15,336 bases of DNA. Source: a virus. The notes beneath the pieces were generated by a model. It was not told where the DNA came from. It saw nothing but the letters and a program-made list of their open reading frames with translations, and made no database searches. Within the stretch, counting starts at the first letter, position 1, and the number at the start of each line of letters is the position of its first letter. Both the position numbers and the translations under genes were made by a program. This document shows, piece by piece, positions 3,021-15,294 of the stretch. The stretch is taken from UHGV virus genome UHGV-1739098, one strand, 5' to 3'.

Positions 3021-3424
3021 TAAGCCTCCTCTACTTCGTAATCAGCGAAGTAACCGGTAGACATTTTTAAAAACCTTGATTCGGTGACTGTGTAAGCCTT
3101 CCTGCCTTTCCTCTCCTTGCCTTCAGGCTCTATGAGGTGGCACGAATAAATGATTCTGCGCTGCCAGTTGCCTGGCATTTCCACCACTGCCAGAACCTCA
3201 AGAATTCTCTTTCCTTCAGCATCAGCGGTGTAAAAACACTGATCACCATAACCACAATCGGCTGGCTCATAATTTTTGTGACAACCGCCAATCCAGCGCT
3301 CATCGGTATCCACGTTGCCGTCATAAGACTGATAATCTGTGCATACTAAGATAAATGGATATACGGTTTCGAACTTGTCACCGGCCTTTATGCCGGTGTT
3401 TACTTGCTTGGTTTGTCCTGGCAT
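3020..3424 (-). CDS. Hypothetical 134-aa protein inserted between cII and the replication genes
   Basis: ORF-track ORF with a strong AGGAG Shine-Dalgarno. Cys/His-containing ([16 protein letters not shown]). No family recognised. Confidence 0.6.
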
Positions 3425-4149: not shown

Positions 4150-4215
4150 AAGATAACTCAAGTTATAAAAAATAGCAATAACCTTTGTTATTTTACTTTG
4201 GATAACCGTAGTTAT
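4150..4215. promoter_or_regulatory. OR region: three operators overlapping pR and probably pRM
   Basis: Three 14-bp palindromes ATAAC-N4-GTTAT at 4153-4166, 4178-4191 and 4202-4215, with centres 24-25 bp apart. Minus-strand pR: -35 TTGCTA (4178-4173), 17-bp spacer, -10 TATCTT (4155-4150), overlapping O1 and O2. Confidence 0.6.
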
Positions 4216-4227
4216 AGATTTGTGGGT

Positions 4228-4935
4228 ATGAAAACATTCGCAGAAAGACTAAATGCAGCCATGAGCTCAGCAGGGGTATCACAATCACAGCTTGCTGACA
4301 TGGTTGGAATATCTCAGCCAGCCATACAGAAGATGTCGTCCGGTAAAACAAACGGATCTCGCAAGATGGTTGAATTAGCCAATGCTTTAAAAGTGCGTCC
4401 TGAATGGCTTAGTTCTGGTATTGGTGAAATGAGGGATGGTGCACATGAAGAACCATCCAATGTCCGTGAGTCATCTTTAAAAGCTGTGGTATGGGAAGAC
4501 ATTAAAAGAAACGATGACGAGTTTGTTGCGTTGCCTCTTCTTAACGTTTCGCTTTCAGCTGGAAGCGGTAGCTGCGAGCTAGAGGAATCATCGGAGTTCT
4601 CTTTGGTTTTCAGAAAGCACTATCTGAAAAAGATGGGAGTATCTGAAAGATCAGCCAAGCTAGTTAGGGTTGTAGGGCAAAGCATGGAACCAACCCTTCA
4701 CGATGGCGATGTTGTTGGTGTTAACACGCAAGATACCACAATCAGAGATGGTAAAACCTACGCTATTTGCCAGTCTGATTTGTTACGAGTAAAAACATTA
4801 ATCGCCACCCCTACATCGGTGATAATCAGATCAATAAATCGCGAAGAGTACCCGGATGAAGTAATGGATAGAGATGAATTTCATGAAACCGTAAGGATTA
4901 TTGGCAGAGTATTCTGGTCGTCTCATAGTTGGTAA
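4228..4935 (+). CDS. cI: CI-type repressor with N-terminal HTH and C-terminal S24 (LexA-like) autopeptidase domain
   Basis: HTH region QSQLADMVGISQPAIQKM. S24 motifs VVGQSMEPTLHDGDVV and a later K. The ORF-track start at 4198 is a TTG that sits inside operator O2/O3; the ATG at 4228, just past O3, is more likely. Confidence 0.85.
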   Translation: MKTFAERLNAAMSSAGVSQSQLADMVGISQPAIQKMSSGKTNGSRKMVELANALKVRPEWLSSGIGEMRDGAHEEPSNVRESSLKAVVWEDIKRNDDEFVALPLLNVSLSAGSGSCELEESSEFSLVFRKHYLKKMGVSERSAKLVRVVGQSMEPTLHDGDVVGVNTQDTTIRDGKTYAICQSDLLRVKTLIATPTSVIIRSINREEYPDEVMDRDEFHETVRIIGRVFWSSHSW

Positions 4936-4975: not shown

Positions 4976-5272
4976 ATGGAATTTCTGATAGTTTTTGTTG
5001 TTGTTTTGGTCATCATTCTTTTTGTTTTGCTAAGCATTAGCAAAAAGCTATCTCAAATGATTGAACATAGCTCTAATCGCGCAAAAGAAGAAGAGCATAT
5101 AATTGATATAAAAGAGATTCTCTCTGATATAAAAATCACATTAGATGAAATAAAATACACAACAGATCTAATTGAACAGTATAAAATACCAACCCCAAAC
5201 GAGAGAAAAGCAATAGATCAATATCGTATTGACTTAGAAATCGACGAAATGCTAAGCAAAAGAAAAGACTAA
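4976..5272 (+). CDS. Hypothetical 98-aa membrane protein (N-terminal transmembrane helix plus charged helical tail); moron at the rex-equivalent position
   Basis: GGAGGG Shine-Dalgarno 5 nt before the ATG. N-terminus EFLIVFVVVLVIILFVLLSI. Visibly very AT-rich compared with cI. Followed by a terminator. Confidence 0.6.
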   Translation: MEFLIVFVVVLVIILFVLLSISKKLSQMIEHSSNRAKEEEHIIDIKEILSDIKITLDEIKYTTDLIEQYKIPTPNERKAIDQYRIDLEIDEMLSKRKD

Positions 5273-5469: not shown

Positions 5470-5511
5470 ATAAATTAGGTTATTGACCACACCTATAACC
5501 TAAGTTATCTT
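5470..5511 (+). promoter_or_regulatory. OL operators and pL promoter
   Basis: OL1 ATAACCTAAGTTAT at 5495-5508 and OL2 ATAAATTAGGTTAT at 5470-5483. pL: -35 TTGACC (5483-5488), 17-bp spacer, -10 TATCTT (5506-5511). Same promoter-operator design as pR. Weaker operator-like half-sites lie further upstream (5427-5460). Confidence 0.55.
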
Positions 5512-5579
5512 TAAGCCATCAGCAGGACGCACTACTCACCATGGCGGTGAATATACAACGATTCGAATATGAATCTACG

Positions 5580-5594
5580 GCGCTGACAAAGCGC
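5580..5594 (+). promoter_or_regulatory. nutL boxB hairpin (P22 type)
   Basis: GCGCTGACAAAGCGC, identical to the P22 nutL boxB as I recall it. Lies between pL and N. Confidence 0.7.
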
Positions 5595-5855
5595 AATAAC
5601 CAAAGTGAACTTTGGGGTGTGGTGAAGCCAGCTAGTCACTGGCAAGTGCTTACCTACTGTTGAGCGGTGAAGCGCTCCCAACGCTAGCAATAGCGTGGAC
5701 GAGATGGGGGGCCGCGGGCGATAAGGCCGCCATAACGCGCACGTTGTCGCATGGAAAAATCACTGGGGTGCCGGTTATACCCCTCCGAATGAGACTCAAC
5801 AAGCTGGAGCTAGACTACCAGCCACCACACCACCAAAGTTCATCAGGAGGTCTAT

Positions 5856-6239
5856 ATGACACGCAGAACTCAGTTCAAAGGCAATTCACGTTCTCGTCGT
5901 CGTGAGCGTTTAAAGGCAAAGGCATTAGCTAACGGCGTACTGGCCCGCGAAGAAGCAATAAGTTCAGAAGTATTACACCGCCCTACTCTAAGCAGATCGC
6001 AGATTCAGGCTAAAGGTACTCACGAAACGCCTGAGCGCATAGAAGACGCTAAGCCAATTAAGTTCATAGCACAGGACGTGATCTGGCAACAGAAAGAATA
6101 CAGACGCAATCTGGAGCGAGCGGCCATTGTGTACGCGAATGAGTTTGGACATAAGCAACCAGAAACTGGTGTATGTCTTCCAAACGTAGCCATTTACTCG
6201 GCAGGCTACCGGAAATCAAAACAACTGACAGCAAGATGA
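5856..6239 (+). CDS. N: N-type transcription antiterminator (P22 gene 24-like)
   Basis: Arginine-rich motif GNSRSRRRERLKAKA near the N-terminus. The C-terminal VAIYSAGYRKSKQLTAR resembles the P22 gp24 C-terminus. GGAGG Shine-Dalgarno. First gene downstream of pL and nutL. Confidence 0.8.
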   Translation: MTRRTQFKGNSRSRRRERLKAKALANGVLAREEAISSEVLHRPTLSRSQIQAKGTHETPERIEDAKPIKFIAQDVIWQQKEYRRNLERAAIVYANEFGHKQPETGVCLPNVAIYSAGYRKSKQLTAR

Positions 6240-6298: not shown

Positions 6299-6487
6299 AT
6301 GCATAAATGTCAGTTCTGTGGATACATGTTTGAATCAAATGAAATGCAACGTATTTCGTTAAACCTTATCGGTAGGCCATACAACATTTGCCTAGGATGT
6401 AGCGAGAAATACAAAAACAAAGACATGTGGGACGACAATAAAAACGATATCGACTGGAATAAAGTGCCATGTATTGATGATAGTTAA
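6299..6487 (+). CDS. Hypothetical 62-aa zinc-ribbon-like protein (CxxC ... CxxC)
   Basis: GAGGGG Shine-Dalgarno. CQFCG and CLGC motifs. AT-rich. First gene after N. Confidence 0.5.
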   Translation: MHKCQFCGYMFESNEMQRISLNLIGRPYNICLGCSEKYKNKDMWDDNKNDIDWNKVPCIDDS

Positions 6488-6535
6488 AAATAATTATGCC
6501 GCATAGTCGGCCTTCTTTTGGCATAAACAACAGAG

Positions 6536-6820
6536 GTGGATATGAAAGAGTTTAAGGGTACGCCTGGTAAATGGAAGTACACGGTTAGAAACGTCAACGA
6601 GATGATGACTACGTTCCATGGTGTGACGATTGGTGACACATACATTGAAGCAGCAACAAGAAATGAAAGGGAGGATGCGCTACTGATAGCGGCAGCACCT
6701 GATTTGCTTGAAGCACTGCAAGAGCTTGTCTTCCTTTACGAGCATGACGAAGGGTGCAGAGAGTTAACCGAATACAAACGAGCCAAGGCAGCAATCAGCA
6801 AGGCTCTGGGAGGTGAATGA
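6536..6820 (+). CDS. Hypothetical 94-aa protein
   Basis: ORF-track ORF preceded by AGAGGTGG. Overlaps the next ORF by ATGA. Confidence 0.5.
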   Translation: MDMKEFKGTPGKWKYTVRNVNEMMTTFHGVTIGDTYIEAATRNEREDALLIAAAPDLLEALQELVFLYEHDEGCRELTEYKRAKAAISKALGGE

Positions 6821-7020
6821 TGTGCGAGTTTTATGAAGAAGATATCAAACGCCCAGAAATGGCAAGTGATGCGACATTACGTGATTACTTCGCGGCAAAG
6901 GCTATGCAAGCAATGATTAGCAATCCATCGATTATCGATAATGATTCTGATGGAGCTGTTAATTATGCAGCAAGCGCTGCATATAAGTTTGCAGACGCAA
7001 TGCTCAAAGCTCGCGAATAA
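6817..7020 (+). CDS. Hypothetical 67-aa protein
   Basis: Translationally coupled (ATGA overlap) to the upstream ORF. No family recognised. Confidence 0.45.
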   Translation: MMCEFYEEDIKRPEMASDATLRDYFAAKAMQAMISNPSIIDNDSDGAVNYAASAAYKFADAMLKARE

Positions 7021-7115
7021 GCACTGTGTATTCATTCCAACGAGTGAATACACGGAGCAATGTCGCTCGTAACTAAACAGGAGCCGACTTGTTCTGATTA
7101 TTGGAAATCTTCTTT

Positions 7116-7142
7116 GCCCTCCAGTGTGAGGGCATTCTTTTT
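7116..7142 (+). terminator. Candidate intrinsic terminator immediately upstream of the 324-aa gene
   Basis: GCCCTC-cagtgt-GAGGGC stem-loop followed by attcttttt. Confidence 0.5.
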
Positions 7143-7155
7143 GCCTGGAGGAGAT

Positions 7156-8130
7156 ATGAGTAACGCATTGCAAATAAGCATTATTAAAACCGACGCTGGT
7201 AAATGTTTTATCACTGATTGCACAGCAAAGGACGGTTATCACTACCAGTACCATCAATCTAAAATTGCTGATCTCCTATTTGACGGAGTTAAACCCAAAG
7301 CCAGCTTTCACAAAAACTGGTTTGAAATTGAACATTACCCTGAAAAGGTTGAGAGAATTATCTCTGGTGAAAGAATTAATGTTCGCTACGAGCTTAAAGA
7401 TGCTGAACTTGAGAGTAAAAAATACCCTTTGACACTTAGTTACAATGAGCGTGACGCAGTGGACGAGGATATCAGAGGCTCTCTTTATGAATACAAATAC
7501 GATACTGCACCTGATTACACCTCTCCAGTTGATGTTGAATTCACATTAGTATGTGAGGTTGAAAATTTTCGTGACGCACCAGAATTTAATTACTCTGCAA
7601 TTAGGCAGGTTGAGTTCCGGGAGGAGAGGTACGTTGTAAAAAACATAAACGTAAAACACTCTCTTGTTGACTGCATCATAATTCCTGAGCCTTTGCGGGC
7701 TAACAGCCCTTGTGAAATTTCATCAAAAGAAATGTATGACATTGTACGCCAGCACGTAAAAGATAACATCGACAACAAACTGGCTAGAATAACAAGTGAT
7801 TACGCATTTTGCTTTACCGTTAAAAAAATAATACCGCTCCTTAAGCCTCACACATATTCATATCAGGATATTTTTGCCAGAACCAAGAAGCAAAGAGCAA
7901 AGTTGCACTTTAAGACTGACACGGTGAAGGAAATTGAAATTTTCCAAATGACACATGACCAAGAAAATTACAAAGGTTATACGGCGATTAAAGGGTTCAA
8001 AGCCAATAACGAATGGGAGCTAAAGGAAATGATTGATAACTTCCTTACGACGCTTATGGATACCATTCACGCGCCAATAGAGCAATGCTCATGCTGTGGC
8101 GGTACAGGCTACACGCAAGACATCAAATAG
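7156..8130 (+). CDS. Hypothetical 324-aa protein, AT-rich, insulated by terminators; function unknown
   Basis: Strong GGAGGA Shine-Dalgarno 4-9 nt before the ATG at 7156. The ORF track's upstream extension to 7060 runs through the terminator and is unlikely. Ends with a CSCCGGTGY motif. No recognisable catalytic motif. Confidence 0.6.
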   Translation: MSNALQISIIKTDAGKCFITDCTAKDGYHYQYHQSKIADLLFDGVKPKASFHKNWFEIEHYPEKVERIISGERINVRYELKDAELESKKYPLTLSYNERDAVDEDIRGSLYEYKYDTAPDYTSPVDVEFTLVCEVENFRDAPEFNYSAIRQVEFREERYVVKNINVKHSLVDCIIIPEPLRANSPCEISSKEMYDIVRQHVKDNIDNKLARITSDYAFCFTVKKIIPLLKPHTYSYQDIFARTKKQRAKLHFKTDTVKEIEIFQMTHDQENYKGYTAIKGFKANNEWELKEMIDNFLTTLMDTIHAPIEQCSCCGGTGYTQDIK

Positions 8131-8150
8131 CCGCCTGAGTGCGGCTTTTT
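8129..8150 (+). terminator. Intrinsic terminator after the 324-aa gene
   Basis: AGCCGC-ctgagt-GCGGCT followed by TTTT, starting at the stop codon. Confidence 0.6.
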
Positions 8151-8226
8151 CATACCAGCATATCAACAGAGATTCATTCGAGTCTCTTTCGCTATGACAA
8201 CAACATTCAACTTAAGGAACTTCCCC

Positions 8227-8361
8227 ATGATGCACTTTCAGCTCGCGGGTAGCGGCGTCATGTCCGCTTTCTACCCGCACGAATCTGAATTATCACGCCG
8301 AGTTAAACAATTAATCAGAGCAGCAAAGAAACAACTGGAGGCGTTATGCGCAATGAAATAG
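8227..8361 (+). CDS. cIII: CIII-like protein (candidate FtsH inhibitor), 44 aa
   Basis: MMHFQLAGSGVMSAFYPHESELSRRVKQLIRAAKKQLEAL resembles the lambda CIII core (AIAG ... PSESLLERITRKLR). AAGGA Shine-Dalgarno with 8-nt spacing. Lies just upstream of kil, as in lambda. Not in the ORF track (under 60 aa). Confidence 0.45.
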   Translation: MMHFQLAGSGVMSAFYPHESELSRRVKQLIRAAKKQLEALCAMK

Positions 8362-13819: not shown

Positions 13820-14167
13820 GTGGAAGAAGAAATCTTCACTCGTGAAGAGGCAGCGTCGTATCTGAAGGTAGACAAAGGCACTATCACGCAGTGGATACGA
13901 AGTGGACGACTTCAGGCCGCAAAGATAAATCCAGATAAACCTAAAAGCCCATATCGCATTTGCAAGTCAGACTGCATTGCGGCGCTTAAGTCTGTGAGAC
14001 ACAATAGCGCGGTGAATGCGGTTGATGTGCAGGAGGTTAAAGCATGTCAATCAAACTACGCGGTGGCACGTGGCACTGCGATTTCGTCGCGCCAGATGGA
14101 TCAAGAATTAGACGCTCTCTTGAAACATCGGACAAAAGGCAAGCGCAAGAACTTCACGATCGTCTGA
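13820..14167 (+). CDS. xis: Excisionase-like HTH protein
   Basis: GTG start after GGAG. The segment FTREEAASYLKVDKGTITQWIRSGRL is typical of excisionase/AlpA-type HTH proteins. Immediately upstream of int, overlapping it by about 124 nt in another frame. Confidence 0.6.
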   Translation: MEEEIFTREEAASYLKVDKGTITQWIRSGRLQAAKINPDKPKSPYRICKSDCIAALKSVRHNSAVNAVDVQEVKACQSNYAVARGTAISSRQMDQELDALLKHRTKGKRKNFTIV

Positions 14168-15204
14168 AAGCAGAAGCGTGGAGAGTAAAAAATCTCGGGG
14201 AATCACCGAAAAAGCTATTCAAGGAAGCCTGCATACGGTGGCTGCGTGAGAAATCGGATAAGAAGTCCATTGATGATGACAAGAGCATTATATCGTTCTG
14301 GATGTTGCACTTCAGAGAAACCATTCTCTCTGACATAACAACAGAAAAAATAATGGAGGCGGTAGACGGGATGGAAAACCGCCGCCATCGCCTGAACTGG
14401 GAAATGAGCCGGGACAGGTGTTTGCGGCTTGGCAAGCCAGTGCCGGAGTATAAACCAAAGCTGGCAAGCAAAGGAACGAAGACGCGGCATCTGGCAATAC
14501 TTCGCGCTATTCTCAATATGGCTGTTGAATGGGGATGGCTTGACAGGGCGCCCAAAATATCAACACCACGCGTTAAGAATGGACGAATCAGATGGCTTAC
14601 AGAGGAGGAATCGAAGCGCCTGTTTGCAGAAATTGCTCCTCATTTCTTCCCTGTGGTCATGTTTGCAATCACGACAGGCCTTCGCCGTTCCAACGTTACA
14701 GACCTTGAGTGGTCACAGGTCGATCTGGATAAGAAAATGGCATGGATGCACCCTGATGAAACAAAAGCTGGCAATGCGATCGGAGTTCCTCTTAACGAAA
14801 CCGCATGCCAGATATTAAGAAAACAGCAGGGGCTCCATAAGAGATGGGTATTTGTCCACACCAAACCTGCCTACCGAAGCGACGGAACAAAAACAGCAGC
14901 GGTAAGGAAGATGAGAACCGACAGCAACAAGGCATGGAAGGGAGCGTTAAAGCGGGCAGGCATTAGCAACTTCCGCTTCCATGACCTGAGGCATACCTGG
15001 GCAAGCTGGCTGGTTCAGTCCGGTGTCTCTCTTCTTGCACTTAAAGAGATGGGAGGATGGGAAACTCTCGAAATGGTTCAAAGATACGCCCACCTTTCAG
15101 CCGGGCATCTCACCGAGCACGCGAGCAAAATCGATGCGATTATAAGTCGCAATGGCACAAATACGGCACAAGAGGAGAACGTGGTTTACTTAAATGTTAG
15201 GTAA
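14044..15204 (+). CDS. int: Tyrosine integrase (P22/lambdoid tRNA-targeting type)
   Basis: C-terminal catalytic motifs HDLRHTWASWLVQSGV and MGGWETLEMVQRYAHL; the N-terminal arm resembles P22-type integrases. Its stop lies 14 nt from the tRNA 3-prime end. Confidence 0.9.
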   Translation: MSIKLRGGTWHCDFVAPDGSRIRRSLETSDKRQAQELHDRLKAEAWRVKNLGESPKKLFKEACIRWLREKSDKKSIDDDKSIISFWMLHFRETILSDITTEKIMEAVDGMENRRHRLNWEMSRDRCLRLGKPVPEYKPKLASKGTKTRHLAILRAILNMAVEWGWLDRAPKISTPRVKNGRIRWLTEEESKRLFAEIAPHFFPVVMFAITTGLRRSNVTDLEWSQVDLDKKMAWMHPDETKAGNAIGVPLNETACQILRKQQGLHKRWVFVHTKPAYRSDGTKTAAVRKMRTDSNKAWKGALKRAGISNFRFHDLRHTWASWLVQSGVSLLALKEMGGWETLEMVQRYAHLSAGHLTEHASKIDAIISRNGTNTAQEENVVYLNVR

Positions 15205-15218
15205 CTTATTGATTTAAA

Positions 15219-15294
15219 TGGTGCCGATAATAGGAGTCGAACCTACGACCTTCGCATTACGAATGCGCTGCTCTACCAACTGAGCTATATCGGC
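15219..15294 (-). tRNA. thrW: tRNA-Thr (anticodon CGU), thrW-like
   Basis: The reverse complement folds as a canonical cloverleaf: acceptor stem GCCGATA/TATCGGC, anticodon loop TTCGTAA (anticodon CGT), T-loop TTCGACT, encoded CCA. Confidence 0.8.

Follow-up and report, generated by a model that had tools for sequence, protein, structure and literature searches.

The stretch of DNA analyzed here, hereafter the window, is the 15,336-nucleotide (nt) virus genome UHGV-1739098, and is the early region of a lambdoid prophage. Between its genes for the N antiterminator and cIII lies, on the plus strand, a gene of 324 codons (7156-8130, from ATG to stop) which we identify as gad1, encoding Gabija anti-defense 1 (Gad1). 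An earlier interpretation drawn from the letters alone (the sequence-only reading) had listed in this interval three open reading frames (ORFs) of 62, 94 and 67 amino acids (aa) and a 324-aa ORF with a GGAGGA ribosome-binding site, together with intrinsic terminators at 7116-7142 and 8129-8150; all of these are present, the upstream hairpin-plus-T site extending over 7115-7142. The 324-aa frame is nested in a longer, mechanically delimited ORF of 356 aa. Its Shine-Dalgarno motif GGAGGA, read from the sequence at 7147-7152 on the plus strand, is unchanged across the 11 loci whose upstream regions were aligned. A windowed GC calculation confirmed that the gene is AT-rich relative to N and recT, its GC content being 0.391 (39.1%) compared to 0.477 (47.7%) for N, 0.453 (45.3%) for recT and 0.457 for the window; gad1 thereby falls within the lowest 2% of 975-nt windows.

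While the sequence-only reading had recognized no family for the 324-aa protein, comparison with Pfam assigned it to PF25705 (Gad1) with an E value of 6.5e-68, the score of 229.9 bits far exceeding the cut-off of 27, in a full-length match of residues 6-321 to profile positions 2-292/293. The Gad1 protein of phage phi3T in the PDB (8U7I) was matched with an E value of 1.2e-43 (query residues 14-319 against residues 8-290 of the chain), and tblastn retrieved the gad1 genes of phi3T and SPbeta-like phages at ~30% identity over 98% of the length (E about 2e-41). Confident homology, an outcome that the sequence-only reading had named as refuting it, was thereby obtained, although Gad1 is not a classical lambdoid early protein. 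Furthermore, the protein is identical over 324/324 residues to the Gad1 homologue of Escherichia coli MS 115-1 (IMG 648535034) and, again over 324/324 residues, to the product of the corresponding gene in the complete MS 115-1 genome (EFJ96339.1 / WP_000063561.1), the DNA of the prophage gene there being 99.9% identical to that of the window. This 324-aa E. coli MS 115-1 homologue is listed as 'experimentally verified: yes' in Supplementary Table 8 of Yirmiya et al. (bioRxiv 10.1101/2023.05.01.538930), who found that the four tested homologues that were not toxic, that of E. coli among them, 'efficiently inhibited Gabija defense'. The 324-aa protein is thus a tested and already published member of a known counter-defense family, and because it is identical to a validated inhibitor of Gabija, its role is in counter-defense rather than in defense or exclusion. 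Scans of the 324-, 62-, 92- and 67-aa proteins against PADLOC-DB yielded no match at E <= 0.1, and none of the four ORFs had a match in NCBIfam.

The residues on which Gad1 function has been shown to depend are retained in the window protein. Those that matter in the phi3T protein include Y103 in the fist domain, Y190 and F192 at the contact with GajA and the cluster formed by C282, C284 and C285, and the F192R substitution results in loss of function (Antine et al., PMC10781630). Y103, at the fist-fist interface, corresponds to Y111 of the window protein, in an invariant column of a four-sequence alignment; Y190 and F192 correspond to Y216 and F218, within the invariant motif ARITSDYxFC; and the three cysteines correspond to C311, C313 and C314 in the sequence CSCCGG. 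The Gad1 proteins of phi3T (8U7I) and Shewanella phage 1/4 thus share with that of the window a Pfam family, a full-length alignment, the interface residues and the CxCC motif. In the published structural work, the GajA4-GajB4 complex is enclosed by a web of eight Gad1 copies, in which the 'shoulder' domains at the C terminus assemble into tetramers via the cysteine cluster, while the 'arm' and 'fist' domains at the N terminus extend around the Toprim nuclease site of GajA; the web blocks DNA binding and cleavage by GajAB, allowing phage growth on Gabija hosts (Antine et al., PMC10781630). By analogy, the Gad1 of the window would be expected to assemble the same octameric web around GajA4B4 and to block its binding to DNA.

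The terminator upstream of gad1 turned out to be part of a larger conserved element. Positions 7021-7134 of the window are identical (114/114) to lambda 34045-33932, which in lambda lies between ral and ea10. In an alignment of eleven loci covering the 250 nt that precede gad1, the sequences were unrelated until 7021 and nearly invariant thereafter. The element is found identical in HK97, directly before cIII, where it is annotated as a 'putative terminator', and occurs at 3199 places in 2237 of the 5426 complete E. coli genomes; its folding z score is -4.3. The corresponding lambda region encodes LPR1/PreS, an ~88-nt Hfq-dependent small RNA located between ea10 and ral, expressed during the lytic cycle and enhancing dnaN translation, the 3' hairpin and poly-U tail of which constitute tL2a, a terminator of the early left operon (bioRxiv 10.1101/2024.10.31.621285). 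Judged by this sequence identity, the conserved element on the plus strand at 7021-7142 is the PreS (LPR1) region and the upstream terminator, at its end, is tL2a. The identification of tL2a rests on the PreS preprint (10.1101/2024.10.31.621285), because the lambda records NC_001416 and J02459 carry no terminator annotations; no Rfam 15 family matches the PreS element. In the window, the hairpin consists of a stem at 7115-7134 (7 pairs, 5 of them GC) followed by TTCTTTTT; the U tract reads AUUCUUUUU, compared to GAUUUUUUAU in lambda, a C interrupting the tract of the window.

A second hairpin, followed by five T residues, is located on the plus strand at the gad1 stop codon (8129-8150), its stem spanning 8129-8146 (6 pairs, 5 of them GC) before TTTTT. 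Its minimum free energy is -11.2 kcal/mol (z = -1.85). An identical copy of this GCCGCCTGAGTGCGG hairpin ends lambda ea10, whose stop codon sits in the loop, a near-copy follows the gp17 gene occupying the same place in L018, and the hairpin is identical in every gad1 locus examined. It is followed by the cIII leader (8151-8226, plus strand), which contains a further hairpin and was aligned with the leaders of HK97 and lambda. This third hairpin, at ~8168-8191 and just 5' of cIII, reads AGAGATTC-ATTC-GAGTCTCT and is a diverged copy of the lambda/HK97 hairpin AACGCTTCACTCGAGGCGTT, to which the scan assigns a terminator-like score in lambda. The window hairpin may form part of the tL2 cluster or of the region controlling cIII translation. 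The terminator scan retrieved 6 terminator-like sites between 5000 and 9000, as against 3.8 +/- 1.9 in shuffled sequences, which on its own is not significant; the two terminators flanking gad1 were accepted as real because they are conserved, not because of the scan.

Comparison of the segment occupied by gad1 in the window (7143-8150) with the corresponding segments of HK97 (L014), lambda (L024) and loci L018, L020, L021, L022 and L023 revealed a slot of exchangeable content. HK97 represents the empty site, relative to which the window carries an insert of ~1 kb consisting of the ribosome-binding site, gad1 and the hairpin, its junctions coinciding with the T tracts that follow the two hairpins. 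Elsewhere, the slot holds ea10 (DUF2528), a P22-type gp17 (PF17420), a 322-aa protein, gad1 or nothing. In lambda, the order ral-ea10-cIII reproduces that of the window, with the left flank (114/114) preserved, the right hairpin and cIII leader homologous, and the cargo ORF likewise beginning just past tL2a; the cargo itself, the 122-aa product of ea10, is unrelated to Gad1. Similarly, a prophage of E. coli BUCT2930 (L018) has the slot and flanks of the window, the slot being occupied by P22-type gene 17, which encodes an unrelated protein of 103 aa. The 322-aa slot protein, annotated as 'cell envelope biogenesis protein TolA', was considered as a divergent Gad1 and rejected (BLASTP E 2.2, no Pfam family). 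The two terminators are thus conserved backbone elements bounding the slot and not private insulators of gad1, and the view that the 324-aa gene was 'terminator-insulated' had to be abandoned, both hairpins (the tL2a/PreS end and the ea10-end hairpin) being shared with lambda. The expectation that the content of the N-to-cIII interval would vary among related prophages was borne out in those compared, as was the presence of ral and sieB in the lambda interval, which harbors orf28 and ea10 as well.

gad1 itself is rare, being found by sensitive blastn in 3 of 5426 complete E. coli genomes, while the exact Gad1 protein was present in 139 blocks of a larger collection. Among the ten loci listed, the exact protein was always encoded directly upstream of cIII-kil, in prophages possessing three types of N, varied repressors and replication modules, and ERF, RecT or Rad52 recombinases. 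The MS 115-1 prophage illustrates this mosaicism. As in the window, its gad1 lies directly 5' of cIII-kil, behind the same PreS/tL2a leader and before the same downstream hairpin; unlike the window, it carries DUF7446 in place of the 62-aa ORF, ERF in place of RecT, and a different replication module. Since an identical protein is thus found in prophages otherwise unlike each other, and since its gene is low in GC, the sequence comparisons support a recent horizontal spread of gad1 by recombination in conserved flanks. The exchange would have occurred on the left within PreS/tL2a and on the right within the stretch formed by an ea10-type hairpin and the cIII leader.

With regard to expression, the ATG of gad1 lies 14 nt past the T tract of tL2a, and a crude consensus promoter scan detected no sigma-70-like site on the plus strand between the pL-like promoter (5483-5511) and 7236. 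Promoter-like matches inside the AT-rich ORF itself (7236, 7349 and 7763) were at chance level, with 6 found against 8.3 expected. The idea of an independently expressed unit was thus not upheld, there being no detectable promoter and no room for one between terminator and start codon. The 14-nt gap and the lack of promoter-like sites from pL to gad1 point to an early gene of pL that is expressed by N antitermination and read-through, rather than to a moron expressed by the prophage. In its lack of a detectable promoter it differs from the phi3T gene, which was introduced into SPbeta by knock-in 'with its native promoter'. Transcribed as cargo of the early leftward (pL) operon, gad1 would depend for its expression on N-modified RNA polymerase continuing past tL2a. 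No Gad1 would then be made in the lysogen; its production would be confined to early infection and the time following induction, which is when incoming phage DNA has to be shielded from a defense that cleaves DNA. Such early-only expression fits a protein that must neutralize this type of defense before the defense acts. In the MS 115-1 prophage, the coding sequence directly upstream (L001 3188-3459), at the position of N in relatives, is annotated as a frameshifted pseudogene; should this coding sequence be N and the frameshift be real, read-through into gad1 would be compromised in that prophage.

These observations bear directly on the proposal, made in the sequence-only reading, of a horizontally acquired exclusion, defense or host-modulation module, considered here as a terminator-insulated moron expressed by the prophage to protect the lysogen in the manner of lambda sieB or rex. 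Part of this proposal holds, in that gad1 is rare, AT-rich, horizontally spread cargo at work in phage-host conflict. The location of the gene in the same interval as sieB and ral of lambda, its base composition, the hairpin terminators on either side and its rarity and mobility among prophages are all features that a moron would display. Both terminators, however, belong to the shared backbone and are found in lambda, a mere 14 nt devoid of a promoter separate the upstream one from the ATG, and gad1 is oriented as pL, whereas lambda sieB is on the opposite strand. The protein is identical to a validated anti-defense protein and has no match in PADLOC, so that the exclusion or defense part of the proposal gives way to counter-defense. 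We regard the moron explanation as largely refuted and as extremely improbable.

Taken together, we consider it very probable that the 324-aa gene is gad1, a counter-defense gene carried as N-read-through cargo of the pL operon in a slot filled by recombination. Several points weigh against this conclusion. Gad1 was assayed by co-expression with Bacillus cereus Gabija in B. subtilis, and the published inhibition covers Bacillus Gabija, not an enterobacterial one (bioRxiv 10.1101/2023.05.01.538930). Octamer formation and binding to GajAB are documented for Gad1 of phi3T and of Shewanella phage 1/4 only (PMC10781630), with which the window protein shares about 33% identity only; these two come from large virulent or SPbeta-type phages of other phyla. 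Relative to phi3T Gad1, the window protein has an insertion of 18 residues in the arm, a domain described as highly variable in length (Antine et al., PMC10781630). Finally, the distance from the Shine-Dalgarno motif of gad1 to its ATG is short (3-4 nt), and read-through expression was deduced solely from position, the promoter scan being a crude one.

The difference in arm length, together with the variability of this domain (PMC10781630), would also suit a true Gad1 whose enterobacterial target is, instead of or besides Gabija, another nuclease of the OLD family (ATPase plus Toprim) such as P2 Old. GajA belongs to this family, which was first found as a lambda-interfering protein of P2, and P2 Old excludes lambdoid phages, of which the gad1 carrier studied here is one. 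On the other hand, Gad1 binds only to assembled GajAB, both subunits being required (PMC10781630), and the exact protein encoded in the window inhibits Gabija (bioRxiv 10.1101/2023.05.01.538930). A relevant OLD-type target, in place of or besides Gabija, appears very unlikely.

Of the three small ORFs preceding gad1 on the plus strand, the first (6299-6487, 62 aa) displays a CxxC-23-CxxC arrangement resembling a zinc ribbon; it matches phrog_19863 (E 5.6e-47), a family of unknown function, and its zinc-finger matches in Pfam and the PDB were all sub-threshold. The second encodes 92 aa of the XkdD/Y8K6 family from an ATG at 6542 to 6820, or 94 aa from a GTG at 6536, the ATG having the better Shine-Dalgarno sequence (AGAGGTGG). 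It matches phrog_1273 (E 2.6e-23), likewise of unknown function, and a 95-aa homologue in MS 115-1 and other loci carries the Pfam domain PF27050 (Phage_P22_Y8K6). The third (6817-7020, 67 aa) has no Pfam match and corresponds to the C-terminal part of phrog_2201 (E 1.9e-18), another family of unknown function. Sequence searches of the PDB with the three proteins returned chance-level matches (zinc-finger fragments, RNA polymerase beta' with E > 0.1) or none. The description of the small ORFs as coupled applies to the second and third, which overlap by ATGA (6817-6820), but not to the first, which is separated from the second by 48-54 nt containing a weak hairpin and T run (6508-6530).

This weak hairpin and T run, followed by GGCATAAACAACAGA (6508-6535, plus strand), represents a recurrent motif of module junctions. 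In its general form, a short hairpin and T run followed by GGCATAAA(C/T)AACAGA, the motif marks module boundaries in the N-cIII interval; it follows ral in lambda and directly precedes PreS in loci L003, L005, L007 and L010. In the window, the pair of 92-aa (Y8K6) and 67-aa ORFs is inserted between the junction motif and the PreS element.

That all four ORFs are co-directional in pL, that the second and third are translationally coupled, and that MS 115-1 and some other loci have Y8K6 and a 70-aa ORF beside gad1 might suggest a four-gene cassette, the 62-, 92-, 67- and 324-aa products acting together as the functional unit. This is contradicted by the mosaic contexts of gad1, whose upstream neighbors elsewhere are DUF7446 alone, Nmad5, a 285-aa protein or the 62-aa ORF alone. 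Conversely, the small ORFs are present in many genomes devoid of gad1, the exact 62-aa protein, named 'hypothetical', being found on 542 contigs. PreS/tL2a, an element present in lambda, moreover separates them from gad1, which was sufficient by itself in the published assay (bioRxiv 10.1101/2023.05.01.538930). We therefore give the cassette explanation next to no credence. Because gad1 occurs without the small ORFs and they occur widely without it, the small ORFs are independent mosaic modules; in view of their position in early pL, roles in host takeover or counter-defense would be plausible for them, if speculative.

The remainder of the window has the layout of a lambdoid early region. Genes for a DnaB-type helicase, an O-like replication protein, cII and cro occupy its minus strand, and cI (4198-4935) its plus strand. 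The pL-like promoter at 5483-5511 was retrieved by the promoter consensus scan, and part of the stretch from pL to N (5517-5627) is identical to HK97 at 109/111 positions. The upstream boundary of the interval is the gene for an N antiterminator of the HK97/H-19B type (5856-6239, plus strand), identified by matches to PF25694 (N_peptide, E 4.4e-15) and phrog_271 (E 4.1e-39), its DNA being ~96% identical to N of HK97 and of H-19B. Its downstream boundary is cIII (8194-8361, plus strand; PF08134, E 4e-30), for which a 44-aa form starting at the ATG at 8227 is also available, RefSeq and HK97 annotating this 135-nt form. The genes for kil, a RecT recombinase and further early functions follow 3' of cIII on the plus strand, and then xis and int (int at 14044-15204), also on the plus strand. 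Directly beyond the integrase gene lies a tRNA-Thr gene (anticodon CGT; 15219-15294, minus strand), which was the sole Rfam match at gathering thresholds in the whole window and is presumably the attachment site of the prophage.

A further ORF of 98 aa (4976-5272, plus strand) adjoins cI downstream, at the position of rexAB in lambda. Its product has an N-terminal transmembrane segment and its GC content of 0.30 is the lowest among the window ORFs measured. It falls into phrog_18389, of the unknown-function class; a PADLOC match to ZorB/MotB was non-significant (E 0.017). The same protein is encoded in MS 115-1 (WP_000394869.1). As a prophage-expressed exclusion gene, the 98-aa ORF is a better candidate than the cassette between N and cIII.

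As the family, structure and mechanism of Gad1 and this exact sequence have all been published or tested before, and likewise the upstream terminator, the identification as such adds little that is new. It does expose an annotation gap, in that the RefSeq pipeline PGAP gives gad1 no name and NCBIfam has no model for it, despite the existence of Pfam PF25705. At 90% identity, the protein falls into a cluster of 108 members from E. coli, E. albertii and Citrobacter amalonaticus, the named ones being all called 'hypothetical protein' (NCBI, UniRef).

The placement of gad1 in the slot of ea10, with HK97 as the empty site, makes the other occupants of this slot candidates for counter-defense screens. 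A parallel is found in SPbeta-like phages, in which an anti-Gabija locus at a fixed position harbors either gad1 or gad2, in a manner akin to the swapping seen in the lambdoid slot; that locus, however, belongs to a different phage group with different flanks, and the alternative occupants of the lambdoid slot are not known as anti-Gabija proteins. P22 gene 17 is needed for escape from exclusion by a resident prophage, an activity that would amount to counter-defense. That the slot is a dedicated, recombination-swappable counter-defense slot of lambdoid phages is nonetheless a tentative proposition, which we hold to be possible but on balance doubtful. If it were true, ea10/DUF2528, the 322-aa 'TolA' protein and perhaps the 62-, 92- and 67-aa ORFs would be undescribed anti-defense proteins, and cargo lying directly after the PreS terminator would rely for its expression on N-dependent transcription past that site.

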